Positions 1 through 14,341 of a DNA stretch of 14,341 nucleotides are shown here, one piece after another. The stretch lies in IMG/VR virus record IMGVR_UViG_2703718829_000006, positions 1 to 14,341 of that record, one strand, 5' to 3'. Under the pieces are notes generated by a model that saw only the letters and a program-made list of their open reading frames with translations, did not search any database and was not told where the DNA came from. The stretch's first letter is position 1. Every line of letters starts with the position of its first letter. Origin of the DNA: a virus. Lineage: Duplodnaviria > Heunggongvirae > Uroviricota > Caudoviricetes. The position numbers and the translations under genes were made by a program.

Positions 1-1170
1 GTGGCCCTCAGTGATACCAAACTTCGTAGCATCAATGGTAAGCCCTACAGCGGCGCACCCGAAGTCACAGATGGTGACGGTTTGAGTGTGCGTATTACTC
101 CGACTGGAACGATTACATTTCAGCATCGATATCGCTGGAACGGTAAGCCTGTTCGCCTCTCTGTCGGCCGGTATCCTGCAATGTCCCTCAAAGAGGCCCG
201 CGTTATCGTCGGTGAGATGCGCGAATTGTACCTCAAGGGGCTAAACCCTAAAAATTATTTTGCCAAAGAAGATGGCGAGCTAACGCTCAAAGAGTGCCTG
301 GATCAGTGGTGGACTAAGTATGTTGAAACGCTGAAGCCTAATACCCAGACGCTGTATAAGTCGGTTGTGTACAACACCATGTACACAGAGTTCCCGGACG
401 CACCGGTCGTAAACATCCCCGTTTCGGCTTGGGTAAGGTTCTTCGACAAGCAGGAGAAGAAAAACGGGAAAAAGGCTCGGGTGCTGCTGCTCCAACTCCG
501 ATCCGTAATGAACTGGTGTATCAGCCGTCAGCTGATCCCTTCGTGCGAGGTGCTGAAACTCAGCGTTAAGACCATCGGCAAGAAACCAGACGTTGGTAGC
601 CGGGTACTCACTTATACCGAGCTGGCAAAAATCTGGTTAGCGCTGGAAAACAATAAGGTCGTTAGCTCCAATAAGGTTCTTCACCAGTTGCTGTTGCTCT
701 GGGGTGCGCGATTATCCGAACTGCGCCTGGCCACCGCAAGTGAGTTCAATATGGGCGATCTGATTTGGACGACGCCAGCCGAGCATTCCAAAATGGGAAA
801 TGTTATTCGTCGGCCTATATTCGACCAGGTTAAACCTTACATTGAAAGGCTTCTCAATGCTGGGAACGATATTCTTTTCCCGGGTCAGGAACTGGACAAG
901 GCTATAGATCGCTCCTCAGCCAATCTCTACATGAAAAAGTTAAGGGATAAAATTGATATACCGGAATGGCGAACCCACGACTTCAGGCGTTCTCTGGTAA
1001 CGAATTTGTCAGGGGAGGGGGTTATGCCCCATGTCACTGAAAAGATGCTGGGGCATGAACTTGGTGGTGTGATGGCGGTGTATAACAAACACGACTGGCT
1101 GGTGGAGCAGAAAGACGCTTATGAGCTTTATGCCGATAAAGTGTTCTGGCACGTCAAACAGCTCGGTTAA
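1..1170 (+). CDS. Tyrosine recombinase / phage integrase, P4-like family. It starts with GTG at the first base of the window, so the true 5' end and any upstream att/tRNA cannot be seen.
   Basis: 389-aa ORF. The N-terminus (MALSDTKLR...GDGLSVRITPTGTITFQHRYRWNGKPVRLSVGRYPAMSLKEAR) is typical of the arm-binding domain of P4-type integrases. The C-terminus has the catalytic-core pattern HDFRRS...GHELGG...AVYNKHDW with a terminal tyrosine. Confidence 0.9.
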   Translation: MALSDTKLRSINGKPYSGAPEVTDGDGLSVRITPTGTITFQHRYRWNGKPVRLSVGRYPAMSLKEARVIVGEMRELYLKGLNPKNYFAKEDGELTLKECLDQWWTKYVETLKPNTQTLYKSVVYNTMYTEFPDAPVVNIPVSAWVRFFDKQEKKNGKKARVLLLQLRSVMNWCISRQLIPSCEVLKLSVKTIGKKPDVGSRVLTYTELAKIWLALENNKVVSSNKVLHQLLLLWGARLSELRLATASEFNMGDLIWTTPAEHSKMGNVIRRPIFDQVKPYIERLLNAGNDILFPGQELDKAIDRSSANLYMKKLRDKIDIPEWRTHDFRRSLVTNLSGEGVMPHVTEKMLGHELGGVMAVYNKHDWLVEQKDAYELYADKVFWHVKQLG

Positions 1171-1339
1171 CGCCTCCTTCGGCTATCCATTTCATAACGG
1201 CTTTTCTGCTATACCGCGTCGGGTACGTTAAAACTGGCTGAGGGAATCCGTGGTCTTTGCGTAAGCGCCATACTGCTGTTTTTTTCTTTTTGAGCAGGTC
1301 GAAAACTTCCTGTTCTTCCATAAAATCAGTAGTAGTCAT
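1154..1339 (-). CDS. Excisionase / AlpA-family small DNA-binding protein (Xis-like).
   Basis: 61 aa counted from the internal ATG at 1339, which has a GAGGA Shine-Dalgarno about 6 nt upstream on the minus strand. The pattern DF..E.....K.TAVWRLRKDHGFPQPV....RYSRKAVMKWI fits AlpA/Xis-type winged helix regulators. The 3' end overlaps the integrase 3' end by 17 bp in convergent orientation. Confidence 0.7.
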   Translation of the reverse strand: MTTTDFMEEQEVFDLLKKKKTAVWRLRKDHGFPQPVLTYPTRYSRKAVMKWIAEGGVNRAV

Positions 1340-1392
1340 GATTTTCCTCGTTGTTAAAGTCTTTATTGTCCGCAACTCTATTCTATGGTGAT

Positions 1393-1632
1393 TCACGCCG
1401 CCCGCATCGAGCGCAGCTTCTTAATGTGCTCGCTCTGTTCCAGTTCAGCCCGGATCTGCCGGGCCTCATCATGGTCGAGCGGTTCAAAGTCGTTGTTAAA
1501 CCTGTACATGCTGGCCGTATTTATCCGTCCTTGGCGCCAGTAGCACACCGTTCTGGCGTCACAGCTGTGAATAATGACTGGCCATCCGTGACCGTCTGGG
1601 AAAATCTGGCCTCGCTGAATGAGTTGAAACAC
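1393..1632 (-). CDS. Hypothetical small early-left protein (79 aa).
   Basis: ORF sits in the minus-strand operon between the TraR-like gene and xis. No family recognised. Confidence 0.45.
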   Translation of the reverse strand: MFQLIQRGQIFPDGHGWPVIIHSCDARTVCYWRQGRINTASMYRFNNDFEPLDHDEARQIRAELEQSEHIKKLRSMRAA

Positions 1633-1635
1633 GGC

Positions 1636-1854
1636 TCACCTCTGATGCTTCCCGCGCTTTTCCGCTTCGTCCTGGCAGTCAGCGCAGCGCTGACAACCTG
1701 CCACCAGTTCCCGGCGCCGTGCCGGAATTGCCTCTCCACAATCAATGCAGTGCGTAGCCGATACCGCGTTATGGTTGATGCGATGGGCCTGTATCGCCTT
1801 ATCGCGGAGAAGCTCTTCTAATTCGCTGGCCTGATCGATAATTTCTGCGCTCAT
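1636..1854 (-). CDS. TraR/DksA-family C4 zinc-finger protein.
   Basis: 72 aa with a Cys-X2-Cys ... Cys-X2-Cys arrangement (CIDCGEAIPARRR...GCQRCADCQ), typical of phage TraR/DksA-like proteins. The stop overlaps the start of the upstream methyltransferase gene. Confidence 0.8.
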   Translation of the reverse strand: MSAEIIDQASELEELLRDKAIQAHRINHNAVSATHCIDCGEAIPARRRELVAGCQRCADCQDEAEKRGKHQR

Positions 1855-2378
1855 GCTGCCTCCATGGTTCCGATCCGCTTTAACTCACTCAGCGAAACGG
1901 ACGTGATGATGCGTCTTGGCGTGATGAATGGCCGCCAGATGAACAAAATTGAGTCCTTTGGGTTGCTCTGCCGTTTACCTGTAGCCGACGCCGGCACAAA
2001 CTGAATGCGTCCGCCGGTTATCAGGCGAATCTCATCAGCGCTCTGCATCGCGGAGAGAAACCATCCGGTAGAGATATCTGCGGGAAGCAGAATGACTACC
2101 GTCTGGGACTGCGCTTTACATTGCTCGGTGGCTTTCTCCACCCACGGCCCGATATCGGAATAGGGTGGGTTGCACCAGATCGCGCCGTACGACGACCATT
2201 CACGACTCAGCGAGTTATCCAGCTCAGTGAGATAGTGAGCGCATAGCGCATTACGTTCAGAGGCAGCAGCATCCAGCCAGAAGCCAAACTCAAGATCGAG
2301 CGCGTTAAATATTTCAATCGGCGTTTGCCAGTAGTCTCTTTCATTTTTCGGTGTGTTCGATCCGCCGTAGTCAGTCAC
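1851..2378 (-). CDS. Phage DNA N6-adenine methyltransferase (Dam-like orphan MTase).
   Basis: 175 aa with WQTP...FGF.LDAAAS and the catalytic NPPY motif (WCNPPYSDIGPWV), the hallmark of phage Dam-family N6-adenine methyltransferases. 4-bp ATGA overlaps with both neighbours indicate operon coupling. Confidence 0.85.
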   Translation of the reverse strand: MTDYGGSNTPKNERDYWQTPIEIFNALDLEFGFWLDAAASERNALCAHYLTELDNSLSREWSSYGAIWCNPPYSDIGPWVEKATEQCKAQSQTVVILLPADISTGWFLSAMQSADEIRLITGGRIQFVPASATGKRQSNPKDSILFIWRPFITPRRIITSVSLSELKRIGTMEAA

Positions 2379-2809
2379 AATGCCGTCTCCATTTCGTCGA
2401 TATAAAGGCCAGCAGCAATCAGCCGGCGGCGCCGGGCTGCTTTCTCAATACATTCCCGGCGATTACCCTCTGCCGCCAGAGCCATAGAACGCCGAGTGAA
2501 CAGGCGTGTTTTACCCTGAGGGGTAATAACCTTTGGCTTTGTGATCAGGTCAAAGGTGCGGTCACAGATGCCGTCCTCGTTGAGCCAGGTTTCCGATGTA
2601 ACCAGCTGTGCAATGCGCCCTTCGCCTCTGGTCAGGCCGTTCGCGACACGGTTAAATTCGATGAGCGTTACGCCGAATTTCTCTGCGATTTCGCTGCCAG
2701 TTACCGGGCGACCGCGCGTCTGAATCATCCAGATAACGCGCTCGCGGAGTCCGGAGAATTTCCCGGCCTTACCTGGTCTGCGGTAAAATGGTGTGCGTTT
2801 CATTTCCAC
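2375..2809 (-). CDS. Hypothetical protein, possibly DNA-binding.
   Basis: 144 aa, basic, with a helix-turn-helix-like stretch (VTGSEIAEKFGVTLIEFNRVANGL). Translationally coupled to the downstream Dam gene. No family recognised. Confidence 0.55.
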   Translation of the reverse strand: MEMKRTPFYRRPGKAGKFSGLRERVIWMIQTRGRPVTGSEIAEKFGVTLIEFNRVANGLTRGEGRIAQLVTSETWLNEDGICDRTFDLITKPKVITPQGKTRLFTRRSMALAAEGNRRECIEKAARRRRLIAAGLYIDEMETAL

Positions 2810-2829
2810 TGCTCCCAGAGTATTTCGGC

Positions 2830-3312
2830 CTATTTGATCATCAGAGACGGCTTGCCGAGCTTTATTTGCGCCCCGGGCACGTCAATACCAGCTTCGATTT
2901 GATGCTTGATAGCCAGTTTGTCTGGTTTGATATTCGTCTCGTACTCGATGAATTCAGGCGGTAATGCGCTGGCGTCAGTAATCTCGACAGATTTAGAAGG
3001 TGCGCGAACCGTTACCTGATGAACTCCGGCTTTAAGTGATTTTTTACCGATGGTTTCCAATGATTTAGCGACATACTCCTTCATGCTTGCCACGCGGTTT
3101 TCGGCGGCTTTTGCACGCTCAATAAGGCGCTTACTTTCTTCTTTCAGAGCCTCGGCATAAGCAGATTCGTTTTTGCAGACCGCAAGAATCTGCTCAACCT
3201 TTGCTTCCAGCTCCCACTCAATTCCATCAAGAGTGTCGGCTATCATTTCAGGCTCCATGCCGGAGTCAGTCAGCCTGGCGAAATCGTTGGCGATCTGATA
3301 AAGGGCTGTCAT
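2830..3312 (-). CDS. Siphovirus Gp157-family protein, commonly found next to RecT/Erf recombinases.
   Basis: 160 aa, acidic and coiled-coil-rich, with an N-terminus ([11 protein letters not shown]...) resembling Gp157-family proteins. Sits immediately downstream of recT with a 4-bp overlap. Confidence 0.65.
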   Translation of the reverse strand: MTALYQIANDFARLTDSGMEPEMIADTLDGIEWELEAKVEQILAVCKNESAYAEALKEESKRLIERAKAAENRVASMKEYVAKSLETIGKKSLKAGVHQVTVRAPSKSVEITDASALPPEFIEYETNIKPDKLAIKHQIEAGIDVPGAQIKLGKPSLMIK

Positions 3313-4223
3313 TGGGTAACCTCTTCAAATTTGGCTTTACACTTGGCGTAAACGGCCTGAACCTCTTGCTGTAGGCGCATTCCTGCGGTCATTTTGTAGG
3401 CCGTCTGGAAATGGGTTTTGAGGTCATTCATGTTTTCTGCCTGCTTCATGTCTTCGCAAAGCGAGCGGACGGTGTTAATCAGCTCTTGCTCAGCGTTTTC
3501 TTTCGACTGGATAACTTCACTTTCAGGCGTGTAAGACATAACCGGTTCGGTAAAAATGCCTTCGCTCTCGTTAAGCATGTCCACGGCATTATCGAGACGG
3601 TCAGCGCGCGGCCAGTATTTATAGGCGCGCTTCACGATCGTCTTTCGGGCCATCTCAGACCAGAAGTTGACCCAGGGGCCTTTCGGGGATGTACCGGCTT
3701 TACTCACCTTCCTGATTTCTTCAATTTCGGCGATGCTCATCTCTTCAGTCAGGTAGTCGCCGTCTGATGTTTTAACTGTGCAGTAGCCTCCGATAACGGC
3801 GCCACGCTCTTCAGGTGTGGCGAATGGGTTGTATTTGTGGGCCGGTGCTTTATCGAGGCCAATAGTTTCGTAAGCGTCGTTCGCATGAACCAGCTTGCAT
3901 TGGCCCCACTTAATGACGCCGGCTGATTGGGCTATATGCAAAAGCCCCATATAGCTGATATCAAGGCATACCATGCCGTCACGCGGTACTAAGTAGGCCA
4001 GCTTGCTGGCAGGGTTTAAGCTGATCCCAACCGCTGCCACGTTAATGATTGCGTTCTGAGCGCTGACAGGATTGCTAACTGCCGTTTTGGCTAACGTGTC
4101 ATTGCGCTGAAATAGCTGAATCGCAAACTGGCACTCTTTTGCCCATGTCAGGCTCTGGTCAGTAAGAGCGCTGGTAAACAGCGGCTCTTGCTGTTTAACG
4201 AACTGAATAAGATCGAAGCTCAT
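3309..4223 (-). CDS. recT: RecT-family single-strand annealing recombinase.
   Basis: 304 aa. The block [24 protein letters not shown]...AVDMLNESE closely parallels the conserved RecT block of Rac RecT (GPWVTHWEEMAKKTAIRRLFKYLP...AVSMDEKE). Confidence 0.9.
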
Positions 4224-4516
4224 AGCCCCTCCTCAATGTTGACTTGATGCCGGGCAATGACTTCCACCATGTAGCGCACGTTTTCCGCCATGCGCTCCTG
4301 AAACTCAACATCGTCATCAAACGCACGGGTAATGGCTTTTTTGCTGGCCCCGTGGCGTTGCAAATGATCGATGCATAGCGATTCAAACAGGTGCTGGGGC
4401 AGGCTTTTTTCCATGTCGTCTGCCAGTTCTGCCTCTTTCTCTTCACGGGCGAGCTGCTGGTAGTGACGCGCCCAGCTCTGAGCCTCAAGACGATCCTGAA
4501 TGTAATAAGCGTTCAT
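4220..4516 (-). CDS. gam: Gam, host RecBCD nuclease inhibitor (short GamS-length form).
   Basis: The 98-aa product ([37 protein letters not shown]...) is nearly identical, as recalled, to the C-terminal short form of lambda Gam. 4-bp overlap with recT. Confidence 0.9.
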
Positions 4517-4592
4517 GGCTGAACTCCTGAAAATGGCTGTGAAAATATCGCCCGCGAAATGCCAGGCTGATTAGGAAAACAGGAAAGGGGGG

Positions 4593-4799
4593 TTAGTGAT
4601 TCAGGCCGTTACCGCGTCCGTCGAGAAAAACTTCCACGAGCAAATCACGGGTATAAGTGCGCTCGATGCCGCGATGCAGATAAAGCCGTCCGCGTAAATT
4701 AGCTGATGCAGTCCAGGTACCATCTTTGTGTTTGACCAGCATTCCTGGCATGACCGCGCCGCGATTAACGGTCTGTGTTCCGTAATGTTGATGAACCAT
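4593..4799 (-). CDS. Hypothetical small protein in the kil/cIII position upstream of gam. The start is uncertain: the ORF is open up to a TTG at 5003.
   Basis: The ATG at 4799 is preceded on the minus strand by AGGAG with a 5-nt spacer, giving a 68-aa product (MVHQHYGTQTVNRGAV...). The longer 136-aa frame starts at TTG with no Shine-Dalgarno and has an arginine-rich N-terminus. No family recognised. Confidence 0.4.
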   Translation of the reverse strand: MVHQHYGTQTVNRGAVMPGMLVKHKDGTWTASANLRGRLYLHRGIERTYTRDLLVEVFLDGRGNGLNH

Positions 4800-5052
4800 A
4801 AAAACTCCTGCCCGTAAGCTGGGCTGCTGAACATATAGAGACTTCTGCGCGTATTCAGGCGGTGGATGGCCGCCGGTTGTCATAACTAAGCCGCCTCGTT
4901 GAAGCGACTGAGGTATGAAATGTTGAGTTAATTTCAGCTGGTCACACCGACGTTCACGCGTCCGTTTCACCCCTCGCACTCCCCGAAGCCTGCCGAAATT
5001 CAAACTGCGGATCTAAGCGGTCATCGCAACGGTGAATCAGGTAGTTGCCGTA

Positions 5053-5135
5053 TCGTTGTGTTGTTGCGACGAACTTATTTAAAACTATAGTTGTTTTATC
5101 GTCAACAACAAAAGTTGTTTTATTGGTTGTTTTAG
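5053..5135. promoter_or_regulatory. Putative OL operator / pL region: a cluster of GTTGTT-containing repeats.
   Basis: Direct copies of RGTTGTTTTA at 5089-5098, 5113-5122 and 5125-5134, another GTTGTT at 5060-5065, and an inverted AACAAC at 5104-5109. The same motif recurs in the cI-cro intergenic region. Confidence 0.45.
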
Positions 5136-5245
5136 ATATAACTGATTGTATTTAGGATGGATTTATTTTGTGACTTGAATCGCATAGCGATAACTGAAGC
5201 GAGGTTATGGTGGTTTTTTTAACGGTGTGTGTGATGAGGGGAGGG

Positions 5246-5273
5246 CAAAAGAAAACCCGGCACGGTGACCGGG
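5246..5273 (-). terminator. Putative intrinsic terminator downstream of cI.
   Basis: Plus-strand sequence CCCGG-cacggtga-CCGGG is preceded by caaaagaaaa. On the minus strand this reads as a hairpin followed by a T-rich tract, about 120 nt past the cI stop. Confidence 0.45.
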
Positions 5274-5394
5274 ATTCTTACGCCGTTAGGTAAAGATATT
5301 ATTGCGGTGGCTTAATATTACTACCTAGAGCAAAGATAGGAATTAGTTCTTTACTGAATGAGCACAATGCCCAGTTGATAATTTTTAATTGGTA

Positions 5395-6084
5395 CTACCC
5401 ATGCTTCCTATATGTCTGCGGCATGCTCCCAATAACCTTACCGAAGATGAACACCCGGTTCATCTCGTCTTTCTCGATCGGGTCCCACGGTGAGTAGCTT
5501 TTGTTATCAGAGATGACCAGCAGCTTATCCTTCATCATTTGCAGGCGCTTTACATGGGCTGTGTCGTCGTACAGAAACGCATAGATACCATCACCGTCGA
5601 AAGATTTAACTGTGATATCAACGAACAGCAGATCACCTGGTTCGATCGTTCCTGACATGCTGTCACCACGCACGTTAATGATGCGGATATTTTCCGCCTT
5701 CCTACCATCGAACATGTGACGAGCATCGTCAAACGAGTACTCAACCGAGCGTAGAACTTCTACAAACTCACGGTTGATGACTCCCGGCCCAGCACTGACT
5801 TCTATATCAAGAACGTCAATCTTGAAGTATTTGGAATGGCTGACAGTTGATTGTATTGGTTGCACTGTACTGTCTGACATATTTCCAACGCCAGAAGATA
5901 ACCATTCTGCGCGCACACCCAAAGCGTTCGCGATCTCCACGATTTTAGTTGTTTGATTAGCTTTCCCTGTTTCGATTTTCTGAATAGCAGCCTGGCTAAC
6001 CCCGACCAAATCCCCAAGCGCCTTTTGTGTAAGGCCTCGCGCTAATCTGGCTTCTTTAAGTCTTTCTGAGAGTGTTGTTTTCAT
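5395..6084 (-). CDS. cI: CI-like prophage repressor (N-terminal HTH plus C-terminal S24 LexA-like autopeptidase domain).
   Basis: HTH region LSERLKEARLARGLTQKALGDLVGVSQAAIQKIETGK. The C-terminal domain has GDSM (catalytic Ser) and a VKRL lysine typical of S24 self-cleaving repressors. Start placed at the ATG at 6084; the ORF is open up to 6150, but that upstream ATG lies inside the operator palindrome. Confidence 0.88.
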   Translation of the reverse strand: MKTTLSERLKEARLARGLTQKALGDLVGVSQAAIQKIETGKANQTTKIVEIANALGVRAEWLSSGVGNMSDSTVQPIQSTVSHSKYFKIDVLDIEVSAGPGVINREFVEVLRSVEYSFDDARHMFDGRKAENIRIINVRGDSMSGTIEPGDLLFVDITVKSFDGDGIYAFLYDDTAHVKRLQMMKDKLLVISDNKSYSPWDPIEKDEMNRVFIFGKVIGSMPQTYRKHG

Positions 6085-6161
6085 AGTCCAAATGTACAAC
6101 CAAGGTTTTATTCTATCAAACGAAAATGGTTGTTGACTAAAAACAACCATAGTTTTAATCT
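6072..6161. promoter_or_regulatory. Putative OR operators and pR promoter between cI and cro.
   Basis: 25-bp dyad ATGGTTGTT-gactaaa-AACAACCAT at 6126-6150. A further GTTGTTTT at 6074-6081 abuts the cI start codon. A -35-like TTGACT at 6133-6138 and a -10-like TAATCT at 6156-6161 lie upstream of the cro Shine-Dalgarno GGAGG. Confidence 0.5.
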
Positions 6162-6188
6162 TGATTCAAATTAACCACGGAGGTTGTT

Positions 6189-6419
6189 ATGAACCCAGCT
6201 ATCAAAACAGCGATCAATATCGTTGGTTCACAAAAGAAACTGGGCGCTGCTTGCGAAGTTTCACAGCAGGCCGTCTATAAGTGGCTTCACAACAAAGCAA
6301 AGGTATCCCCTGAACATGTCGGCAGCATTGTTACGGCTACTGGTGGAGTAGTGAAGGCATACCAGATTCGCCCGGATCTTCCGAAGTTGTTTCCACACAC
6401 CGAAAAGAACGCAGCTTAA
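6189..6419 (+). CDS. cro: Cro-like HTH regulator (YdaS/Cro family).
   Basis: 76 aa, divergent from cI, with a strong GGAGG Shine-Dalgarno. HTH segment QKKLGAACEVSQQAVYKWL. Position and pattern match YdaS-type Cro analogues. Confidence 0.8.
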   Translation: MNPAIKTAINIVGSQKKLGAACEVSQQAVYKWLHNKAKVSPEHVGSIVTATGGVVKAYQIRPDLPKLFPHTEKNAA

Positions 6420-6488
6420 ATTTCCATTTCACGCTCTTTAACAATAAGCAATCAACTTAACAGTCAATTCAAACTAAAGGAGTCAATT

Positions 6489-7028
6489 ATGCAACCACTT
6501 CCATACCAACAGACTAGCGGATTTAGCCCGACTGCGGTGATAAATCGTTCTCAAACAAAACAGGTGCTAGGCCACGAAAAAATCCGTGATGCCGTCCGCG
6601 CCTGGTCGGCTGTAGATAATCAGGATGTCGTTGCCACACTCATTGTGAATGAGTATCGGGAGCAGGGCGGCGGCACCATCGATTTCCCTGATGATGTCAG
6701 CCGTGCACGCCAGAAGCTGTTCCGCTTCCTCGATAACAAATTCGATTCTGAAAAATACCGAAATAACGTGCGTGAACTGACCCCGGCAATTCTGGCGGTA
6801 CTACCGCTGGAATATCGCGGTTACCTGGTTGAGCAGGATAGCTTCATGGCTAGGTTGGCTGAAATGGAAAAGGAACTCAGTGAGGCAAAACAGGCTGTCA
6901 TTCTCAACGCACCACGCCACCAGAAACTGAAGGAAATTAGTGAAGGTATTGTGTCGATGTTTCGTGTGGACCCAGATCTGGCTGGTCCATTGATGGCGAT
7001 GGTTACTACCATGCTGGGGGCGATATGA
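6489..7028 (+). CDS. YdaT-like protein in the cII position (putative CII functional analogue).
   Basis: 179 aa with an AAGGAG Shine-Dalgarno, immediately after the Cro/YdaS-like gene and before O. Motifs EYREQGGG and LTPAILAVLP resemble YdaT-family proteins, as recalled. Confidence 0.55.
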   Translation: MQPLPYQQTSGFSPTAVINRSQTKQVLGHEKIRDAVRAWSAVDNQDVVATLIVNEYREQGGGTIDFPDDVSRARQKLFRFLDNKFDSEKYRNNVRELTPAILAVLPLEYRGYLVEQDSFMARLAEMEKELSEAKQAVILNAPRHQKLKEISEGIVSMFRVDPDLAGPLMAMVTTMLGAI

Positions 7029-7114
7029 CAGGTTCAGAAATGGCGAAAGCCGGTCTGCTGGAACAGAACCGACTTTCAGGTGCAAATCGTAACACACTCA
7101 TTGCGGGAGGAATT

Positions 7115-8044
7115 ATGGCAAACACTGCTGAGATATTCAATTTTCCAGTGCCGGATGCGGCACAAAAGGAGCCGCGCGTGGCAGATCTCGATGATGGTTA
7201 TACGCGCATTGCAAATGAGTTGCTGGAAGTTGTGATGCTGGCCGGATTAACACAGCACCAGCTTCTGGTCTTCCTGGCTGTCATGCGCAAAACATATGGT
7301 TTTAATAAAAAACTGGATTGGGTGAGCAACGAGCAACTGTCCGAATTGACCGGGATATTGCCGCACAAGTGTTCTGCTGCAAAAAGTGTTCTGGTAAAGC
7401 GTGGGATTTTGATTCAGAGCGGGCGGAATATCGGTATTAATAATGTGGTCAGTGAATGGTCAACATTACCCGAATCAGGTAAGAAAAATAAAGTTTACCT
7501 GAAAGAGGTAAATTTACCTGAATCAGGTAAGAAAAGTTTACCCAAATCAGGTAAAGGCGTTTACCCGAATCAGGTAAACACAAAAGACAAACTAACAAAA
7601 GACAATATAAAACCTTTTTCGTCCGAGAATTCTGGCGAATCCTCTGACCAGCCAGAAAACGATCTTCCTGTGGTGAAACCAGATGCTGCAATTCAGAGCG
7701 GCAGCAAGTGGGGGACAGCAGAAGACCTGACCGCCGCAGAGTGGATGTTTGACATGGTGAAGACCATCGCGCCATCAGCCAGAAAACCGAATTTTGCTGG
7801 GTGGGCTAACGATATCCGCCTGATGCGTGAACGTGACGGACGTAACCACCGCGACATGTGCGTGCTGTTCCGCTGGGCATGCCAGGACAACTTCTGGTCC
7901 GGTAACGTGCTGAGTCCGGCCAAACTCCGCGACAAGTGGACCCAGCTCGAAATCAACCGAAACAAGCAACAGGCTGGCGTGACAGCTAGCAAACCAAAAC
8001 TCGACCTGACAAACACAGACTGGATTTACGGGGTGGATCTATGA
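7115..8044 (+). CDS. O: Replication initiation protein O (lambda O family).
   Basis: Start placed at the ATG at 7115, preceded by GGGAGG. The N-terminal domain (VADLDDGYTRIANELLE...MRKTYGFNKK) resembles lambda O. The iteron origin is embedded mid-gene, as in lambda. The stop overlaps the start of P. Confidence 0.85.
   Translation: MANTAEIFNFPVPDAAQKEPRVADLDDGYTRIANELLEVVMLAGLTQHQLLVFLAVMRKTYGFNKKLDWVSNEQLSELTGILPHKCSAAKSVLVKRGILIQSGRNIGINNVVSEWSTLPESGKKNKVYLKEVNLPESGKKSLPKSGKGVYPNQVNTKDKLTKDNIKPFSSENSGESSDQPENDLPVVKPDAAIQSGSKWGTAEDLTAAEWMFDMVKTIAPSARKPNFAGWANDIRLMRERDGRNHRDMCVLFRWACQDNFWSGNVLSPAKLRDKWTQLEINRNKQQAGVTASKPKLDLTNTDWIYGVDL
7466..7620. repeat. Origin of replication (ori-lambda-like): five 17-bp iterons plus an adjacent A-rich region, inside the O gene.
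   Basis: TTACC-N7-GGTAA palindromic iterons at 7466-7482, 7495-7511, 7514-7530, 7538-7554 and 7561-7577, followed by the A-rich tract 7578-7620. Confidence 0.8.
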
Positions 8045-8742
8045 AAAACATCGCCGCACAGATGATTAACTTTGACCGTGAGCAGATGCGTCGGATCGCC
8101 AACAACATGCCGGAACAGTACGACGAAAAGCCGCAGGTACAGCAGGTAGCGCAGATCATCAATGGTGTGTTCAGCCAGTTACTGGCAACTTTCCCGGCGA
8201 GCCTGGCTAACCGGGACCAGAACGAACTGAACGAAATCCGCCGCCAGTGGGTTCTGGCTTTCCGGGAAAACGGGATCACCTCGATGGAGCAGGTTGACGC
8301 AGGAATGCGCGTAGCCCGTCGGCAGAATCGACCATTCCTGCCATCACCCGGGCAGTTTGTTGCCTGGTGCCGAGAAGAAGCATCCGTTAACGCCGGGCTG
8401 CCAAACGTCAGCGAGCTGGTTGATATGGTCTATGAGTATTGTCGGAAGCGTGGCCTGTATCCGGATGCAGAGTCTTATCCGTGGAAATCAAACGCGCACT
8501 ACTGGCTGGTTACCAACCTGTACCAGAACATGCGGGCCAATGCGCTGACTGACGCGGAATTACGGCGCAAGGCTGCCGATGAACTGACTTGTATGACCGC
8601 GCGAATTAACCGTGGTGAGGCGATACCTGAACCAGTAAAACAACTTCCTATCATGGGCGGCAGACCTCTAAATCGTGCACAGGCTCTGGCGAAGATCGCA
8701 GAAATCAAAGCTAAGTTCGGACTGAAAGGAGCCAGTGTATGA
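8041..8742 (+). CDS. P: Replication protein P (DnaB helicase loader).
   Basis: 233 aa, essentially matching lambda P along its length as recalled (MKNIAAQM.NFDREQMRRIANNMPEQYDEKPQVQQVAQIINGVFSQLLATFPASLANRDQNE...). Confidence 0.95.
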   Translation: MKNIAAQMINFDREQMRRIANNMPEQYDEKPQVQQVAQIINGVFSQLLATFPASLANRDQNELNEIRRQWVLAFRENGITSMEQVDAGMRVARRQNRPFLPSPGQFVAWCREEASVNAGLPNVSELVDMVYEYCRKRGLYPDAESYPWKSNAHYWLVTNLYQNMRANALTDAELRRKAADELTCMTARINRGEAIPEPVKQLPIMGGRPLNRAQALAKIAEIKAKFGLKGASV

Positions 8743-9038
8743 CGGGAAAAGAAGCAATTATTCATTACCTGGGGACGCATAAGAGCTTCTGTGCGCAGGA
8801 CGTTGCTGCGGTAACAGGCGCAACAGTAACCAGCATAAATCAGGCTGCGGCTAAAATGGCGCGGACAGGAATCTTAGTCATTGATGGTAAGGTCTGGCGA
8901 ACGGTGTATTACCGGTTCGCTACCAGGGAAGAACGGGAAGGAAAGGTGAGCACGAACCTGATTTTTAAGGAGTGTCGCCAGAGTGCCGCGATGAAGCGGG
9001 TTTTATTTGTTTATGCGGCGGCGGGAGGAAATCAGTGA
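8739..9038 (+). CDS. ren: Ren (exclusion protein Ren-like).
   Basis: 99 aa (MTGKEAIIHYLGTH.SFCA.DVAA.TGATVTSINQAAAKMAR...VWRTVYYRFATREEREGK), highly similar to lambda Ren as recalled. 4-bp overlap with P. Confidence 0.9.
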   Translation: MTGKEAIIHYLGTHKSFCAQDVAAVTGATVTSINQAAAKMARTGILVIDGKVWRTVYYRFATREEREGKVSTNLIFKECRQSAAMKRVLFVYAAAGGNQ

Positions 9039-9130
9039 GGTTGACGATAACTCGTGTCTGGAGTTATATTTTGCCCGTTGCCGCAAAATCGGCACACGGG
9101 ATTGGCGTCCCGGAATACTACTCAACGCAT

Positions 9131-9151
9131 ACCGCGTTAAGCGGTTTTTTT
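9131..9151 (+). terminator. Intrinsic terminator after ren (tR2-like position).
   Basis: ACCGC-gttaa-GCGGT hairpin followed by TTTTTTT. Confidence 0.6.
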
Positions 9152-9250
9152 ATGCGCTAAGCACGGCTACGCCCAAATTATGGTGGGCTGTGTGAGGGCT
9201 TCTTCGGGAGCGCCGGGTTTGAGTAGCCGGTTACGCCAACCTTGCACAGT

Positions 9251-9283
9251 TCACCACCAGTCGATTGGCGTCGTTGGTGGTGA
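9251..9283. promoter_or_regulatory. Perfect 9-bp inverted repeat with a 15-bp spacer, just upstream of the Bro-N gene.
   Basis: TCACCACCA (9251-9259) and TGGTGGTGA (9275-9283), about 25 bp upstream of the ATG at 9308. Could be an operator or a 5'UTR hairpin. Confidence 0.4.
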
Positions 9284-9307
9284 TGGTTAACCTGATGAGG
9301 TGATACT

Positions 9308-9916
9308 ATGACTACTCAATTAGCATTCCACAAAACGACTTTTACCCCAATTTGCCACAATAACAGAATTTGGCTTACTGCCACTGAAGTTGGTTTAGCT
9401 CTGGAATATGCGGACGATAAAGCAGTTCAGCGCATTTACTCTCGTCACTCAGATGAATTTACAGATATGATGACAAGGGTGGTCAAAGTGACCACCCCTC
9501 GTGGAATGCAGGAGTCTCGAGTATTTAGCCTTCGCGGAGCCCATTTGATCGCCATGTTTGCACGAACTCCTGTAGCCAAAGAGTTCCGTCGCTGGGTTCT
9601 GGATATTCTCGATCGAGAAGTTCAACAATCCCCAATCATAAAACAATTCACTGATAACGAACTTTGCACACTTGCTTGGTTGTGGCGAGCTGGGGATGCG
9701 ATGTTAACCGCCTGCCAGAACGTTACTCCTCTTCTTCAGGTTGCGGAGCATCGTGAAGCTGGTCGCTTCACTTCTATCGAGCAAGAATATCCCCAGATAC
9801 TCAATAAGGCACAGGCAATCCTTGCCAGAGAAACGGCACATGTAAAATTCCGGCCGTGGCAGGATGATAAGTGGAGTCGAGTTTTGCCGCATTTACGTTC
9901 GGATCGATTACAGTAG
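9308..9916 (+). CDS. Bro-N domain protein (antirepressor/Roi-like family).
   Basis: 202 aa with a GAGGTG Shine-Dalgarno. The N-terminal half fits the Bro-N fold pattern (F....NNRIWLTATEVGLALEY.D......R.......T.GG.Q....I.E.G.Y.LI..S....A..F..WV...). The C-terminal half is unassigned. Confidence 0.8.
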   Translation: MTTQLAFHKTTFTPICHNNRIWLTATEVGLALEYADDKAVQRIYSRHSDEFTDMMTRVVKVTTPRGMQESRVFSLRGAHLIAMFARTPVAKEFRRWVLDILDREVQQSPIIKQFTDNELCTLAWLWRAGDAMLTACQNVTPLLQVAEHREAGRFTSIEQEYPQILNKAQAILARETAHVKFRPWQDDKWSRVLPHLRSDRLQ

Positions 9917-10377
9917 ATTCCAATTAACAATGAGAAACACATAGCCACCCCGTGGTATTGAAACCATATAATGTTGGATTTGAAAACAGATCTTTTTCCA
10001 TGTATTAATAACTACATCCCCGCGAGTGATTCAAAAAGGAGGGCCCAATTTTGTCCGAGTTTTTGTATTCCCCCGCATGCCGCTGCGGAGCACTACATCT
10101 GAGTGTCTGACTAGGGGATAAAATTAGACTGGATAGTGAGAAGAAAGTGGCGTGCTAGGCTGTGCCGAGTGCTACCAGTACACCCTGGGGGTGTGCAGCT
10201 TTCGCCGAGACTGTAGTGGGTATCGGTTAATGCACGAAAAACCGAGAGGTCAGACAACCAATTTGCCGTAGGATTGTTTCCGGTGCGATACCGGTGTACT
10301 AACTGAAAGCAATGCGAAAAAGCATAAACTCGGTCCTTCAGTCGCCCTACACACTATTTACTAAGAAGGGCTAAAGC

Positions 10378-10734
10378 ATGGATACAATTATCACATGGAT
10401 GGGAGATCGTCTGTTGGGGTGGATAACAAACAAATCCGATCTGCGGCAGAGGGCAATCACTGGATTAACTCCTGCGATTTGTTCAACAATTTTATATACT
10501 GAAAAATTAAAACGTGGTGAGCCTAATAACCCAAACGAAGAAGAAAAACTTTATAGGCTTTGGTATGAAGCGTCTTCCCAAGTCGTAGACTTTGATCGAG
10601 AGCTGGCTAAAAGATGTTTAGATAAATCAGAATATTGGCTTCATTCTGAATTATATAGCCCTGAGAAAGTTGAAGAGCTAAACATTTCTTTGGTTGGTAT
10701 GAAGGCAACGCTTGAAGGAATAAAGCACAATTAA
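10378..10734 (+). CDS. Hypothetical AT-rich orphan protein (118 aa), accessory/moron gene.
   Basis: Clean ORF with an AAGAAGGG Shine-Dalgarno-like sequence. Visibly more AT-rich than the flanking phage genes. No recognised motif. Followed by a hairpin plus T-run at 10865-10888. Confidence 0.55.
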   Translation: MDTIITWMGDRLLGWITNKSDLRQRAITGLTPAICSTILYTEKLKRGEPNNPNEEEKLYRLWYEASSQVVDFDRELAKRCLDKSEYWLHSELYSPEKVEELNISLVGMKATLEGIKHN

Positions 10735-10864
10735 AACCTTTGATTTGCGATAATCAACTCGCCATAATCATGTCATCGGAGCCTGAACAACTCCGGTGAC
10801 TTCTGCGCTAAACGGGGACGTTTATGCGCACACACAATCCAAACTCTCTTCTCCCTCCACAGAT

Positions 10865-10888
10865 GCAGAAATGCACCTGCGTTTTTTT
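10865..10888 (+). terminator. Putative weak intrinsic terminator closing the accessory insert.
   Basis: GCAG-aaatgcac-CTGC followed by G and TTTTTTT, upstream of the ybcN start. Confidence 0.4.
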
Positions 10889-10921
10889 GCATCCAACGTT
10901 TGACCTCTGCGGAGGTGAAGC

Positions 10922-11377
10922 GTGAACCTCCCACAAGACGGTATCAAATTGCATCGCGGTAACTTCACCGCTATCGGTCAGCAGATCCAGCCTTATCTGG
11001 AGGACGGCAAATGCTTTCGCATGGTGCTTAAACCGTGGCGCGAAAGACGCAGTCTTTCCCAGAATGCACTCAGCCACATGTGGTACAGCGAAATCAGTGA
11101 GTACCTCATCAGCAGGGGGAAATCGTTCGCTACTGCAGCATGGGTAAAAGATGCTCTCAAACACACATACCTCGGTTATGAAACCAAGGACCTGGTTGAT
11201 GTCGTAACCGGCGAAATCACTACGATCCAGTCGTTACGCCATACCTCCGATCTTGATACCGGAGAGATGTATGTCTTCCTGTGTAAGGTTGAAGCCTGGG
11301 CGATGAATATTGGCTGCCGCCTGACTATTCCGCAGAGCTGCGAGTTCCAGCTGCTGCGCGACAAGCAGGAGGCGTAA
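10922..11377 (+). CDS. ybcN: NinB-family protein (DLP12 YbcN-like, described as a DNA base-flipping protein).
   Basis: 151 aa, GTG start with a GGAGGTG Shine-Dalgarno. The [12 protein letters not shown] motif matches the NinB RSL.QN motif, and the overall sequence matches DLP12 YbcN as recalled. Confidence 0.8.
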
Positions 11378-11547
11378 TGACTACACCGCTTATTCGGGTC
11401 ATGAACGGACACATCTACAGAGTACCAAATCGTCGTAAGCGTAAGCCTGAGCTGAAGCCATCCGAAATACCAACACTGCTAGGGTATACCGCCAGCCTGG
11501 TTGATAAAAAATGGTTGCGACTGGCAGCAAGGAGGAATCATGGCTGA
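11377..11547 (+). CDS. ninE: NinE (small nin-region protein, 56 aa). Not in the supplied ORF track because it is short.
   Basis: The ATG overlaps the ybcN stop (TAATG). Translation [56 protein letters not shown] matches NinE as recalled. The 3' end overlaps the ybcO start. Confidence 0.75.
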   Translation: MTTPLIRVMNGHIYRVPNRRKRKPELKPSEIPTLLGYTASLVDKKWLRLAARRNHG

Positions 11548-11830
11548 TTTGAGAAAAGCAGCGCGTGGTCGGGAATGCCAGGTAAGAATCCCTGGCGTAT
11601 GTAATGGCAATTCTGAGACGTCTGTACTGGCACATATCCGGCTGGCTGGATTGTGCGGTACCGGTATCAAACCGCCAGACCTGATTGCCACCATTGCATG
11701 TTCTGCCTGTCACGACGAAATCGACCGCCGCACACATTTTGTCGATGCTGAGTATGCAAAAGAATGCGCGCTGGAAGGTATGGCGAGAACACAGGTTATC
11801 TGGCTGAAAGAGGGGGTTATTAAGGCGTGA
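11540..11830 (+). CDS. ybcO: YbcO-like protein (DLP12 YbcO family, described as a putative nuclease).
   Basis: Start at the ATG at 11540, preceded by AAGGAGGA. The 96-aa product ([33 protein letters not shown]...[11 protein letters not shown]) has conserved Cys/His and matches DLP12 YbcO as recalled. Confidence 0.85.
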
Positions 11831-12189
11831 ATACCTACAGCATCACATTACCCTGGCCTCCGAGCAATAATCGCTATTACCGCCATAATCGCGGGCGCAC
11901 GCACATCAGCGCAGAGGGGCAGGCATACCGCGATAACGTCGCCCGAATCATTAAAAACGCAATGCTGGATATCGGCCTGGCTATTCCTGTGAAAATCCGC
12001 ATTGAGTGTCACATGCCGGATCGCCGTCGCCGTGACCTGGATAATCTGCAAAAAGCTGCTTTTGACGCACTTACCAAAGCAGGTTTCTGGCTGGATGATG
12101 TTCAGGTCGTTGATTACCGTGTTGTGAAGATGCCCGTTACCAAAGGTGGGAAGCTGGAGCTGACCATCACTGAACTGGGAGATGAATGA
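11827..12189 (+). CDS. rusA: RusA Holliday junction resolvase.
   Basis: 120 aa ([89 protein letters not shown]), near-identical to E. coli RusA as recalled. GTG start overlapping the ybcO stop. Confidence 0.95.
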
Positions 12190-12326
12190 TGTTTGAGTCT
12201 TATATGGCAGAACGTCTTCGCCGCCGCTGGGTGCGCCTGCGCTTATATCATTTTCCCGGTTCTGTTTTGACCGATTACCGAATACTGAAGAATTACGCCA
12301 AAACACTGAAAGGAGCTGCCGCATGA
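12186..12326 (+). CDS. ylcG: YlcG-like small protein (46 aa). Not in the ORF track because it is short.
   Basis: ATG overlaps the rusA stop. Translation [46 protein letters not shown]. Position after rusA matches the DLP12 gene order. The stop overlaps the start of the Q-like gene. Confidence 0.6.
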
Positions 12327-13012
12327 ATACCCAATATTTACAGTATGTCCGCGAGCAACTCATGGTGGCTACCGCTGACTTGAGCGGAGCAACGAAAGGC
12401 CAGCTTGAAGCCTGGCTGGAGCATGCACAATTTGATACTGGTACATACAAACGAAAGAAGCGACGCATTCTGGATGAGGTAACTGGCAAGATTATTATGC
12501 TGGATAATCCGCCGATTTCCGGTAAACAGTCGTACGCAAAAGGTTCATCTGTCGCCCTGATCAGTCCGGTCGAGTTTTCAACCTCTTCATGGCGCCGCGC
12601 TGTTCTGTCTCTCGATGAGCATCAGAAAGCATGGTTGCTGTGGAGTTACAGTGAAAATATTCGCTGGGAGCATCAGGTTGCCATAACGCAGTGGGCATGG
12701 AGCGAGTTTAAGACTCTGTTGGGTACCAGAAAAATTGCAGGTAAGACACTGGAACGCCTGAAGAAGTTGATCTGGCTGGCGGCACAGGATGTGAAGAGCG
12801 AACTGGCAGGGCGTGAGGCTTATGAATACCAGGAACTGGCGTCACTGGTGGGAGTGACATCAAAAAACTGGTCTGAGACATTCACTGAACGCTGGGTTGC
12901 AATGAAGCACATTTTTCTACAGCTTGATAGCGAAGCTTTATTGCTTCTAACGAGAACACGTTCAAAACAAAAGGCGACATTTTCACAGCAAAATATTGCA
13001 AAACTGGATTAA
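12323..13012 (+). CDS. Putative late-gene antiterminator (Q-like). The call rests mainly on position.
   Basis: 229 aa, immediately upstream of the late regulatory region and lysis cassette, in the Q position of lambdoid genomes. Sequence is not lambda Q, and the family assignment was not verified. Confidence 0.55.
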   Translation: MNTQYLQYVREQLMVATADLSGATKGQLEAWLEHAQFDTGTYKRKKRRILDEVTGKIIMLDNPPISGKQSYAKGSSVALISPVEFSTSSWRRAVLSLDEHQKAWLLWSYSENIRWEHQVAITQWAWSEFKTLLGTRKIAGKTLERLKKLIWLAAQDVKSELAGREAYEYQELASLVGVTSKNWSETFTERWVAMKHIFLQLDSEALLLLTRTRSKQKATFSQQNIAKLD

Positions 13013-13194
13013 AAAAGCATATATTTCATATAAATCTGATATTTTGCCAATGTTGTACGCACTGGCAGTAATCCAAATTCAAGCTCGAGGTTTAAAGCCT
13101 TGGGCTTTTCTGTTTCTGGGCGGTGAGTATCCTTCCAACGTACCCCAGCCAGGGTGTCTTCAGCTGTTGAGTTGATATTGCTTAACCCTCTGTT

Positions 13195-13220
13195 GCCAGC
13201 TACATGCTGGCTTTTTTATT
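13195..13220 (+). terminator. tR'-like intrinsic terminator in the late promoter-proximal region (the target of Q antitermination).
   Basis: GCCAGC-tacat-GCTGGC hairpin followed by TTTTTTATT, between Q and the holin gene. Confidence 0.65.
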
Positions 13221-13322
13221 CCAGGCTTGCGGGGAGCATCAACTCCGTGCTTTGTCGTTAAATTACCCCGTGAGCCTGATTTCTGACATTTAACGTCCCG
13301 GCCTTTTGTCGGCGGCGAAACA

Positions 13323-13640
13323 TTGGCTATTCATATGCACGAAAAAGAGAGCCTTGCCGGAGCGTTCTGGCTCGTTTTGCTGATCATCGCAGGTTGGGGC
13401 GGTCTGGTCCGCTACCTGATAGATGTGAAGCAGAGTAAAGCAACGTGGAGTTGGATAAATGCTCTGGCTCAGATAGTGGTATCAGGATTCACCGGTGTTA
13501 TTGGTGGCCTGATCAGCATCGAAAGTGGATTCAGTATTTACATGATTCTCGCGACAGCGGGGATTAGTGGTGCGATGGGTTCGGTTGCACTGACGTACTT
13601 CTGGGAACGACTGACAGGGGTGAAAAATGCAAAATCTTAA
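13323..13640 (+). CDS. Holin (class I, three predicted transmembrane segments) with a possible dual start.
   Basis: 105 aa from TTG at 13323, with an in-frame ATG at 13335. Three hydrophobic stretches (AGAFWLVLLIIAGWGGLV, WINALAQIVVSGFTGVIGGLI, FSIYMILATAGISGAMGSVAL) and a charged C-terminus. Directly precedes and overlaps the endolysin gene. Confidence 0.75.
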   Translation: MAIHMHEKESLAGAFWLVLLIIAGWGGLVRYLIDVKQSKATWSWINALAQIVVSGFTGVIGGLISIESGFSIYMILATAGISGAMGSVALTYFWERLTGVKNAKS

Positions 13641-14103
13641 TCCTCAGCGTAAAGCTTTCCTCGATATGGTGGCATGGTCAGAAGGAACGGATAACGGACG
13701 GCAGAAAACCAGAAATCATGGTTATGACGTCATTGTTGGCGGAGAGCTATTCACTGATTACTCCGATCACCCTCGCAAACTTGTCACGCTAAACCCAAAA
13801 CTCAAATCAACAGCCGCAGGACGTTACCAGCTTCTTTCCCGTTGGTGGGATGCCTATCGTAAGCAGCTTGGCTTGAAAGATTTCTCTCCGAAAAGCCAGG
13901 ACGCAGTGGCATTGCAGCAGATTAAAGAGCGTGGCGCTTTACCGATGATTGATCGCGGTGATATTCGTCAGGCTATCGACCGTTGCAGCAATATCTGGGC
14001 GTCGTTACCTGGTGCAGGTTACGGTCAGTATGAACATAAAATCGGTGACCTGATTGCCCGATTTAAAGAGGCTGGTGGGGTGGTAAATGAAGTTGAGCTA
14101 TAA
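13627..14103 (+). CDS. R: Endolysin, lambda R-type lytic transglycosylase.
   Basis: 158 aa (NPQRKAFLDMVAWSEGTDNGRQKTRNHGYDVIVGGELFTDYSDHPRKLVTLNPKLKST.AGRYQLLSRWWDAYRKQLGLKDF...), near-identical to lambda R as recalled. Confidence 0.95.
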   Translation: MQNLNPQRKAFLDMVAWSEGTDNGRQKTRNHGYDVIVGGELFTDYSDHPRKLVTLNPKLKSTAAGRYQLLSRWWDAYRKQLGLKDFSPKSQDAVALQQIKERGALPMIDRGDIRQAIDRCSNIWASLPGAGYGQYEHKIGDLIARFKEAGGVVNEVEL

Positions 14104-14325
14104 GCTGGTTATCGCTGCATTCTTCTTTACTGTCATCGGTTCTTTCATCTGGTCTGCCAACCACTACTACAGCAAATATCAGCACGAAAAGAAACGTGCT
14201 GATGAGGCTGTACAAAATGCTGAATCTGCAACAGCCATTACCCGTAACGTCCTGCAATCACTGCAAATCGTCAATACAGTTATAGAGGTTAACCAGCATG
14301 CAAAACAGCAGATCGCACTGGAGTC
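14087..14325 (+). pseudogene. Rz-like i-spanin, truncated after about 80 codons.
   Basis: The N-terminus has a signal-anchor TM segment (LVIAAFFFTVIGSFIWSANHYY) like lambda Rz (...LSWAVNHYR...), which is about 150 aa. The reading frame runs into IS2-like terminal sequence at 14326 and stops at the window end. Confidence 0.65.
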
Positions 14326-14341
14326 TAGACTGGCCCCCTGA
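14326..14341. mobile_element. Probable left terminal inverted repeat of IS2 (first 16 bp only), inserted in the spanin gene.
   Basis: TAGACTGGCCCCCTGA matches the recalled IS2 terminus (TAGACTGGCCCCCTGAATCTCCAGACAACC...). Only 16 bp are inside the window, so this rests on memory of the IS2 end. Confidence 0.5.

Follow-up and report, generated by a model that had tools for sequence, protein, structure and literature searches.

Positions 9041 to 9916 of the viral sequence analysed here probably constitute an immI-type riboregulatory cassette that controls the translation of an antirepressor in a lambdoid prophage. The sequence is IMG/VR virus record IMGVR_UViG_2703718829_000006, positions 1 to 14,341, and this whole stretch of 14,341 nucleotides (nt) is referred to below as the window. 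An inverted repeat just upstream of the antirepressor gene (the dyad) would be the hairpin that presents a2, one of the target sites of a C4-type antisense RNA encoded immediately before it. The identity of the cassette elements, their mutual complementarities, the conservation and covariation of the hairpin, and the mutual exclusivity of the hairpin and the base of the C4 stem are shown by the analysis. Antirepressors provide a route to prophage induction that is independent of RecA repressor cleavage, and the cassette would decide whether the antirepressor is made. Annotation of the region can be corrected to include two RNA genes and their targets in place of an empty spacer, and the cassette points to a testable RNA control of prophage induction.

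The inverted repeat lies within a C4-type RNA cassette

A preliminary description of the window, made from its letters, had drawn attention to a perfect 9-bp inverted repeat upstream of the start codon of a Bro-N gene, and this repeat was borne out. Its arms, TCACCACCA (9251-9259) and TGGTGGTGA (9275-9283), are perfect complements separated by a 15-nt gap, and 24 nt lie between the right arm and the ATG (9308) that opens the Bro-N open reading frame (ORF). The same description had taken the quality of the repeat as a clue to its function. The repeat is real, but a perfect 9-nt repeat is by itself unremarkable: five such repeats with a loop of 3-20 nt occur in the window, compared to 1.15 +/- 1.3 expected from first-order Markov resamples, and since repeats of this kind are statistically not unusual in the window the dyad alone is not significant by the chance test. 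It is significant because it is placed inside a recognised RNA cassette and is conserved, with covariation, in relatives. The preliminary description located the dyad correctly and overlooked the two upstream RNA genes that account for it. Another of the five repeats lies inside the antirepressor ORF at 9477-9497 and consists of GGGTGGTCA and TGACCACCC around the 3-nt loop aag.

In the nomenclature of phage P1, the single-stranded junction of the C4 RNA carries a site, a', whose targets are a1 and a2, and a hairpin loop of the same RNA carries a site, b', whose targets are b1 and b2. The window carries the full set of a1, b1, C4 (b', a'), a2 and b2 in the P1 order. RNA genes were called with Rfam at the curated gathering scores, and a more permissive search added the c4-a1b1 motif; the coordinates of the features are collected in Table 1.

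The first RNA gene encodes a small RNA (sRNA) of the type of IsrK, an Hfq-binding sRNA, identified by a score above the gathering score, a predicted promoter of its own and an intrinsic terminator at its 3' end (stem 9131-9145 followed by a U run) that is the sole terminator in the region. Its second hairpin (CGGG/CCCG) displays TTGGCGT (9102-9108) in the loop as the decoy a1, and the decoy b1, CTACTCAA, is found at 9118-9125. The -35 TTGAC and -10 TATAnT of the predicted promoter are invariant in a three-way alignment of the window, the annotated P1 promoter and the Salmonella Gifsy-1 system described below, and the predicted promoter is the counterpart of P1 P51b (P1c4) and Gifsy-1 PisrK. 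Transcription would start near 9077 if the Gifsy-1 numbering in PMC4825925 is carried over. A match to the c4-a1b1 motif (RF03163) overlaps the isrK match at 9064-9116 and reaches 40.8 bits (E=6.7e-9), below the gathering score of 46.7. Both hairpins of the motif are present and a1 lies in a hairpin loop as in the motif, in a region that is claimed by isrK.

The second RNA gene matches the full-length C4 model (positions 1-87) with 72.7 bits, compared to a gathering score of 45 (E=6.9e-13). Its closing stem consists of 17 bp (9181-9197 with 9240-9256), all of them standard pairs, with CCA directly after it. Hairpin 1 is capped by UUCG, a loop of the UNCG/GNRA type expected for C4; b' (TTGAGTAG, 9219-9226) forms the loop of hairpin 2, and a' (ACGCCAA, 9233-9239) occupies the single-stranded junction. 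Both sites are complementary to a1/b1 upstream and to a2/b2 downstream, and an antirepressor gene follows, which is the arrangement that defines a C4/immI locus. By analogy with P1, from which its ends were taken, the mature RNA would be about 77 nt long, processed by RNase P at the 5' end and active as a repressor in trans. Among about 67 true C4 loci, the closing stem is followed by CC in nearly all (three exceptions; 9257-9258 in the window), and a conserved UUAU stands ahead of it. Together with the CC tail, the conserved U at -1 is compatible with tRNA-like recognition by RNase P, in which case the CC would be reused in the dyad.

The target sites recur as exact repeats. The sequence GATTGGCGTC is found at 9100-9109, in the IsrK hairpin loop, and at 9263-9272, in the dyad loop, and the complement of its TTGGCGT core is the ACGCCAA of the C4 junction. 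Similarly, CTACTCAA is present at both 9118-9125 and 9312-9319, with its complement in the loop of C4 hairpin 2. The a1/b1 sites of the IsrK-like RNA could form about 19 bp with the a'/b' region of C4.

The dyad is built into this arrangement. The final 6 nt on the 3' side of the C4 closing stem, together with the CCA tail, make up its left arm, as placed by the Rfam alignment, and its loop contains a2 (TTGGCGT, 9265-9271), the exact complement of a'. Because the left arm belongs to the 17-bp C4 stem, the dyad and the base of the C4 closing stem are mutually exclusive. All folding results reported here are thermodynamic predictions; on its own, the dyad hairpin was predicted at -20.0 kcal/mol on the + strand compared to -16.5 kcal/mol on the - strand. 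No Rfam family matched the a2 region (9262-9300).

The Bro-N gene named in the preliminary description was also found: the domain covers residues 17-100 of the 202-residue product (Pfam, 40.5 bits, cut-off 25.6, E=4.4e-10). The C-terminal half, which that description had left unassigned, proved to contain P22_AR_C, the C-terminal domain of the P22 antirepressor (residues 112-180, 57.6 bits, cut-off 22.4, E=1.4e-15). The whole protein falls within the PHROG anti-repressor (Ant) families (phrog_245 at 5e-54) and its RefSeq relatives are annotated as 'P22AR C-terminal domain-containing protein', while a PDB sequence search with the protein gave no match. By its domains the product is an antirepressor, which would bind the prophage repressor. 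Its Shine-Dalgarno sequence (SD), GAGG, is at 9297-9300 and its ATG at 9308-9310. The b2 site, CTACTCAA, lies at +5 to +12, within codons 2-4, and is complementary to b'. Ahead of this gene, a candidate upstream ORF starts at the AUG of the C4 5' base, with no SD before it, reads across C4 and the dyad, and leaves 17 nt between its stop and the antirepressor ATG. In most related loci the frame of this C4 AUG is open past a2, which is not the case in P1. No icd-like gene (the small gene that precedes the antirepressor gene in P1) is present at the window locus.

Table 1 Features of the cassette and of its surroundings in the window.
Feature	Position	Strand	Basis or remark
S24/helix-turn-helix (HTH) repressor	5395-6150	-	Pfam
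sigma-70 promoter, predicted	9041-9070	+	promoter scan, 10/12 match; TTGACG, 18-nt spacer, TATATT
IsrK-type small RNA / leader	9079-9151	+	Rfam RF01394 isrK, 60.7 bits (gathering score 50)
Candidate 36-codon upstream ORF	9180-9290	+	sequence reading; frame analysed in near-identical loci
C4-type antisense RNA	9182-9258	+	Rfam RF01695, match 9176-9261; ends from annotated P1 C4 RNA
Dyad, probable a2 hairpin	9251-9283	+	inverted-repeat search; folding; covariation in relatives
Antirepressor translation initiation region	9297-9319	+	sequence reading; repeat pairs
Antirepressor gene, 202 aa	9308-9916	+	Pfam Bro-N and P22_AR_C; PHROG anti-repressor Ant
Q	12323-13012		preceded by NinB-like gene

The a2 hairpin is conserved and covaries in related C4 loci

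Viral contigs were scanned with a C4 core pattern (TTATGG...CAACC) and those sequences able to form the closing stem were kept, which gave 53 distinct loci. Essentially every locus has, 0-23 nt (typically 5-10 nt) past the C4 stem, a perfect 7-nt complement of a', and the end of the C4 3' strand supplies the left arm of the stem that flanks this a2 site. In a MAFFT alignment of C4 and the downstream region from the 53 loci, a' and a2 were paired in 100% of cells with compensatory changes at six of the seven pairs; the known C4 structure, for comparison, was 97.3% paired in the same alignment. Every one of the 53 loci folded a hairpin with a2 in the apical loop, at energies of -11 to -22 kcal/mol.

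The arms of this hairpin vary in sequence across the 52-53 relatives while their complementarity persists. The mean energy of arm pairing was -17.3 kcal/mol for cognate arms, -11.1 kcal/mol for non-cognate arms and -7.7 kcal/mol for shuffled arms. RNAalifold, run on an independent alignment that excluded the C4 5' strand, recovered an outer and an inner helix around a2 in which all six predicted pairs were compensated by double changes. A 15-pair helix was paired in 77.5% of cells, compared to 66.9% in shuffles (none of 500 reached the observed value, a statistic that overstates the independence of the sequences) and to 31-50% when the partner was slid, and its covariation score was 0.363 compared to 0.188. 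Five core pairs were kept in 45-49 of 52 sequences. G·U pairs were frequent in the helix, and the same positions would be C·A mismatches on the opposite strand. A protein operator would be expected to keep its sequence rather than its pairing; the retention of pairing with free variation of sequence therefore argues for an RNA element, and a covarying hairpin rich in G·U pairs points to a strand-specific RNA structure rather than a protein operator.

Matches of 7-10 nt between b' and b2 are found at the ribosome-binding site in nearly all related loci. More than 50 relatives resemble P1 in that b2 overlaps the SD, beginning 13-21 nt ahead of the ATG, and among the loci compared (L001-L119) b2 is located at +5 to +12 in the coding region only in the window and its near-identical relatives. 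In the window lineage, b', b1 and b2 have all changed together.

In Pseudomonas/Burkholderia-like loci such as L004, L021, L036, L048 and L098, the right arm of the a2 hairpin runs into ...CUCC, which complements the SD context (GGAGUCC, GGAGCU, GGAGUUCC) with apparent matching changes. This weakly suggests that the right arm could have an anti-SD role in these loci when C4 is folded.

Predicted folding of the leader

The two structures that share the C4 3' strand were compared in longer RNAs. The minimum free energy (MFE) structure of an RNA covering 9176-9330 had C4 fully folded (-63.4 kcal/mol), and forcing the dyad cost +4 kcal/mol. The MFE structure of the full leader (9079-9330; -100.1 kcal/mol, z=-3.9) again had C4 folded, with the right arm of the dyad paired to the start-codon/b2 region. 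The centroid of the same leader had a1b1 paired with a'b' in cis, C4 unfolded, the dyad formed and the start region open. Across 55 loci, addition of the 110-nt leader raised the mean predicted probability of the dyad from 0.10 to 0.26, and the probability exceeded 0.5 with the leader in 16 of the 55, including close relatives of the window. The dyad is most likely both the a2 stem-loop of the target and the alternative partner of the C4 3' strand, in a bistable leader that would gate translation of the antirepressor.

Proposed mechanism and alternatives

In the mechanism that we propose, the promoter would be constitutive and would give a short IsrK-like RNA that ends at the terminator. Read-through would produce a long transcript containing the C4-type antisense RNA and then the antirepressor mRNA, from which C4 would be cut, as it is in phage P1 with RNase P at the 5' end. 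The a' and b' sites of C4 would pair with a2, in the dyad loop at -43 to -37, and with b2 at +5 to +12, so that the two duplexes would bracket the SD and the AUG; initiation would be blocked and the prophage would stay repressed. The IsrK-like RNA, with its identical a1 and b1, could titrate C4 or refold the C4 domain, relieving the block and turning translation on. For the dyad to form, the base of the C4 stem would have to be open, as it would be, for instance, with a1b1 paired to a'b' in cis; the leader may exist in two states, one with C4 folded and one with C4 unfolded and a2 presented. Processing, action in trans and the identity of the translationally active conformer are the steps of this scheme that we infer.

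Several points weigh against this interpretation. In the absence of the leader, the C4 fold is favoured thermodynamically over the dyad. Mature C4 takes the left arm away with it, so the dyad is available only in unprocessed transcripts. The c4-a1b1 match falls outside that family at the gathering score, and the loci sampled all came from a single sequence pattern and cluster phylogenetically. The Gifsy-1 study refers to the a1b1:a'b' conformer as 'inactive', and the same conformer is predicted here to have the dyad formed and the start region open. Gifsy-1 control also needs translational coupling from the upstream gene orf45, and the upstream ORF of the window stops 17 nt short of the antirepressor gene.

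This last point bears on a different explanation, which we regard as rather unlikely, in which the dyad is a structure within the translated upstream ORF and serves as a barrier or spacer in translational coupling rather than in target presentation. Ribosomes starting at the AUG of the C4 base would unwind C4 and the dyad, stop 17 nt before the antirepressor ATG and re-initiate. Gifsy-1 orf45 begins at this conserved AUG, and full activation of anrP, the Gifsy-1 antirepressor gene, depends on orf45 being translated; moreover, the frame is open past a2 in most relatives, and in several of these its stop overlaps the downstream ATG as ATGA. However, P1 and several other loci stop after about 14 codons and yet retain the hairpin, the RNase P cleavage of P1 falls inside that very AUG, the position before 9180 lacks an SD, and conservation of the RNA sequence may have kept the frame open incidentally. 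It appears quite improbable that the right arm mainly sequesters the start-codon/b2 region in cis, with its complementarity to C4 arising as a side effect of purine/pyrimidine composition. The MFE structures of both the window leader and a 'C4-excised' mRNA do pair 9273-9287 with the start-codon region, and the right arm together with CC complements the SD context in many relatives, but cognate pairing barely improved on non-cognate pairing (-12.7 compared to -11.7 kcal/mol, z only -2.0) and the dyad itself covaries strongly. The helix between the right arm and the start region is kept here as a weakly supported prediction only, and the two roles of the right arm are mutually compatible.

The preliminary description had offered two readings of the repeat, a translational control hairpin or a dedicated operator; the former was essentially right and the latter found no support. 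We consider it barely credible that the dyad is a DNA operator for the prophage repressor, Cro or the Bro-N protein. A perfect palindrome near a gene start would suit an operator, and Bro-N domains are DNA-binding in some proteins, but the arms diverge freely with pairing kept, the G·U pairs are valid only in + strand RNA, and the left arm is fixed by the C4 stem. In addition, no second copy of the half-site was seen within 9000-10300, the inverted repeat near cI and cro (6126-6150) is unrelated in sequence, and the predicted promoter lies 200 nt upstream rather than at the dyad. A protein-bound operator was rejected on the pattern of covariation, in which pairing and not sequence is retained. 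A role as an intrinsic terminator or attenuator, with the C4 closing stem as antiterminator controlling read-through into the antirepressor gene, seems highly improbable. Although a U-rich tail follows 10 of 49 distinct hairpins, the remaining 39 keep the hairpin without one, and with so few U tails termination cannot be its general role. The right arm in the window is followed by UGGUUAACC, without a U tract, and the terminator scan reported the IsrK terminator only; an intrinsic terminator was rejected for the window for its lack of a U tail.

An extension of the proposed mechanism, which we offer tentatively as a possibility that we do not favour over others, is that a conserved RNA switch of four strands, resembling a translational attenuator, has the dyad as its central helix. 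The strands would be the C4 5' strand (1), the C4 3' strand (2), the right arm (3) and the start region (4). The transcript could then act either as a C4 donor, with helices 1:2 and 3:4 formed and the start closed, or as a translatable mRNA that presents a2, with helix 2:3 formed. The IsrK/a1b1 leader might tip the balance, and b2 might have moved into the coding sequence in the window lineage. If true, such a switch would unite the P1 model, in which C4 represses, and the Gifsy-1 model, in which IsrK activates, in one mechanism.

Prophage context and distribution

The window represents the early-right region of a lambdoid prophage (cI, cro-like, O, P, ren ... Q). The repressor gene is followed by a YdaS/Cro-like gene, a YdaT-like gene, the replication genes O and P, ren (assigned by PHROG comparison) and then the RNA cassette. 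At the cro/cII positions (6189-7028) the window encodes a YdaS-like protein of 76 aa and a YdaT-like protein of 179 aa, as Rac-type prophages do. A perfect 9-nt inverted repeat, ATGGTTGTT and AACAACCAT separated by 7 nt (6126-6150), is located at the 5' end of the called repressor ORF and adjoins the 38-bp gap before the cro-like gene; it is unrelated in sequence to the dyad and is a plausible candidate operator. A scan for tRNA and tmRNA genes found none. The 460-nt stretch that follows the antirepressor gene (9917-10377) contains no ORF of at least 60 aa, and an Rfam search of it gave no match even at E<=1. In Gifsy-1, the sRNA gene isrJ comes after anrP (PMC4825925).

BLAST identified homologous cassettes in 244 phage records, many Stx phages among them, and the surrounding 1.7 kb matched nearly 3,000 complete E. 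coli genomes. No RNA-gene annotation over the cassette was present in the one RefSeq relative and the listed phage records that were checked. Some E. coli relatives, represented by positions 1828-2953 of locus L122 (E. coli NZ_CM148343), have about 850 bp between ren and the antirepressor gene. This stretch includes an 88-aa hypothetical gene at the place where the window has the RNA cassette alone, and no noncoding RNA is annotated in the L122 region 1828-2953.

Comparison with known systems

Every part of the cassette belongs to a described family, and the cassette is a further example of a described system. The immI region of P1/P7 (P51b - a1 b1 - c4 - a2 b2 - icd - ant1/2) shares its element order and aligned promoter hexamers with the window, and the collinearity of the window, Gifsy-1 and P1 in the three-way alignment extends from the -35 hexamer as far as the regulated gene's start codon. 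As in the window, the closing stem of P1 C4 (17-18 bp) encloses two hairpins, the second with b' in its loop, and a' occupies the 3' junction. A few nt past the C4 3' end, a2 lies within a hairpin that takes its left arm from the C4 3' strand. The equivalent P1 dyad consists of CCTGCCACC, at the C4 3' end, and GGGTAGCAGG, which flank a2, and an antirepressor gene is located downstream. According to the P1 annotation and to summaries of the P1 work, C4 is released from the operon transcript by processing and acts through a2/b2 to repress icd/ant; processing by RNase P at the C4 5' end is given in the annotation and in reviews citing Hartmann 1995. The systems differ in that P1 b2 covers the SD of a separate small gene, icd, that is coupled to ant, whereas b2 of the window is at +5 to +12 of the antirepressor gene itself. 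The specificities of a' and b' also differ, the window antirepressor is a Bro-N plus P22_AR_C protein, and the window belongs to a lambdoid prophage with an S24-type CI repressor rather than to the P1 plasmid prophage.

The isrK - orf45/STnc1160 - anrP locus of Gifsy-1 (PMC4825925) resides, like the window cassette, in a lambdoid prophage. The two share the promoter type, an IsrK sRNA with a terminator, identical a1/a'/a2 sites (TTGGCGT/ACGCCAA), an upstream ORF that begins at the C4 AUG (orf45 in Gifsy-1) and an antirepressor that begins MTTQ; the equivalent Gifsy-1 dyad, TCACCACC/GGTGGTGA, likewise flanks a2. When provided in trans, IsrK raises anrP translation 139-fold (Hershko-Shalev et al. 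2016, PMC4825925). STnc1160 arises by processing of the read-through transcript, and experiments support the cis a1b1:a'b' duplex, which is 'structure A' of the Gifsy-1 leader (both PMC4825925). IsrK and STnc1160 are abundantly expressed in lysogens. The published Gifsy-1 structure model covers nt 1-180 and, by our count on the sequence, ends inside the left arm and so before the a2 hairpin. The b'/b2 sequences differ between the two loci, and b2 overlaps the anrP SD in Gifsy-1. The orf45 stop overlaps the anrP start (ATGA), whereas the upstream ORF of the window ends 17 nt upstream, and the cassette follows Q in Gifsy-1 but lies between ren and the nin region in the window. Similarity between AnrP and the window antirepressor is weak (E=0.003), and the two proteins belong to different PHROGs. 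The RNA cassette appears to be a portable module that has become attached to different antirepressors.

The CI RNA of satellite phage P4, with seqA and seqC, resembles C4 in its described mode of action: it is a small RNA processed from its own operon transcript that pairs with sites on both sides, but it terminates replication-gene transcription prematurely and does not block translation of an antirepressor. The C4 and c4-a1b1 families are listed in Rfam clan CL00128, to which we take the P4 CI family to belong as well. The Gifsy-1 authors regard P4 seqA RNA as a structural homologue of IsrK (PMC4825925).

The motifs of Weinberg et al. 2010 (RF01695 and RF03163) were accompanied by a model in which a1/b1 compete with a2/b2 (Weinberg 2010 supplement), and pairs of c4 and isrK have been noted in other phages, such as APSE. 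The same supplement mentions hairpins sharing sequence with the 3' half of the C4 P1 stem and reads them as terminators in 'several cases'; it does not include a hairpin that presents a2, whereas such a hairpin was found here in all 53 loci, mostly without a U tail. In the literature that we reached, the 1990-1995 P1 papers excepted, a general, covarying, a2-presenting hairpin over the C4 stem is not clearly described, and the nearest earlier statement is the one sentence on 'terminator' overlaps in that supplement. The family-wide opposition of the a2 hairpin and the C4 stem provides a mutable handle on the question of how one transcript can be both the source of the repressor RNA and its target.

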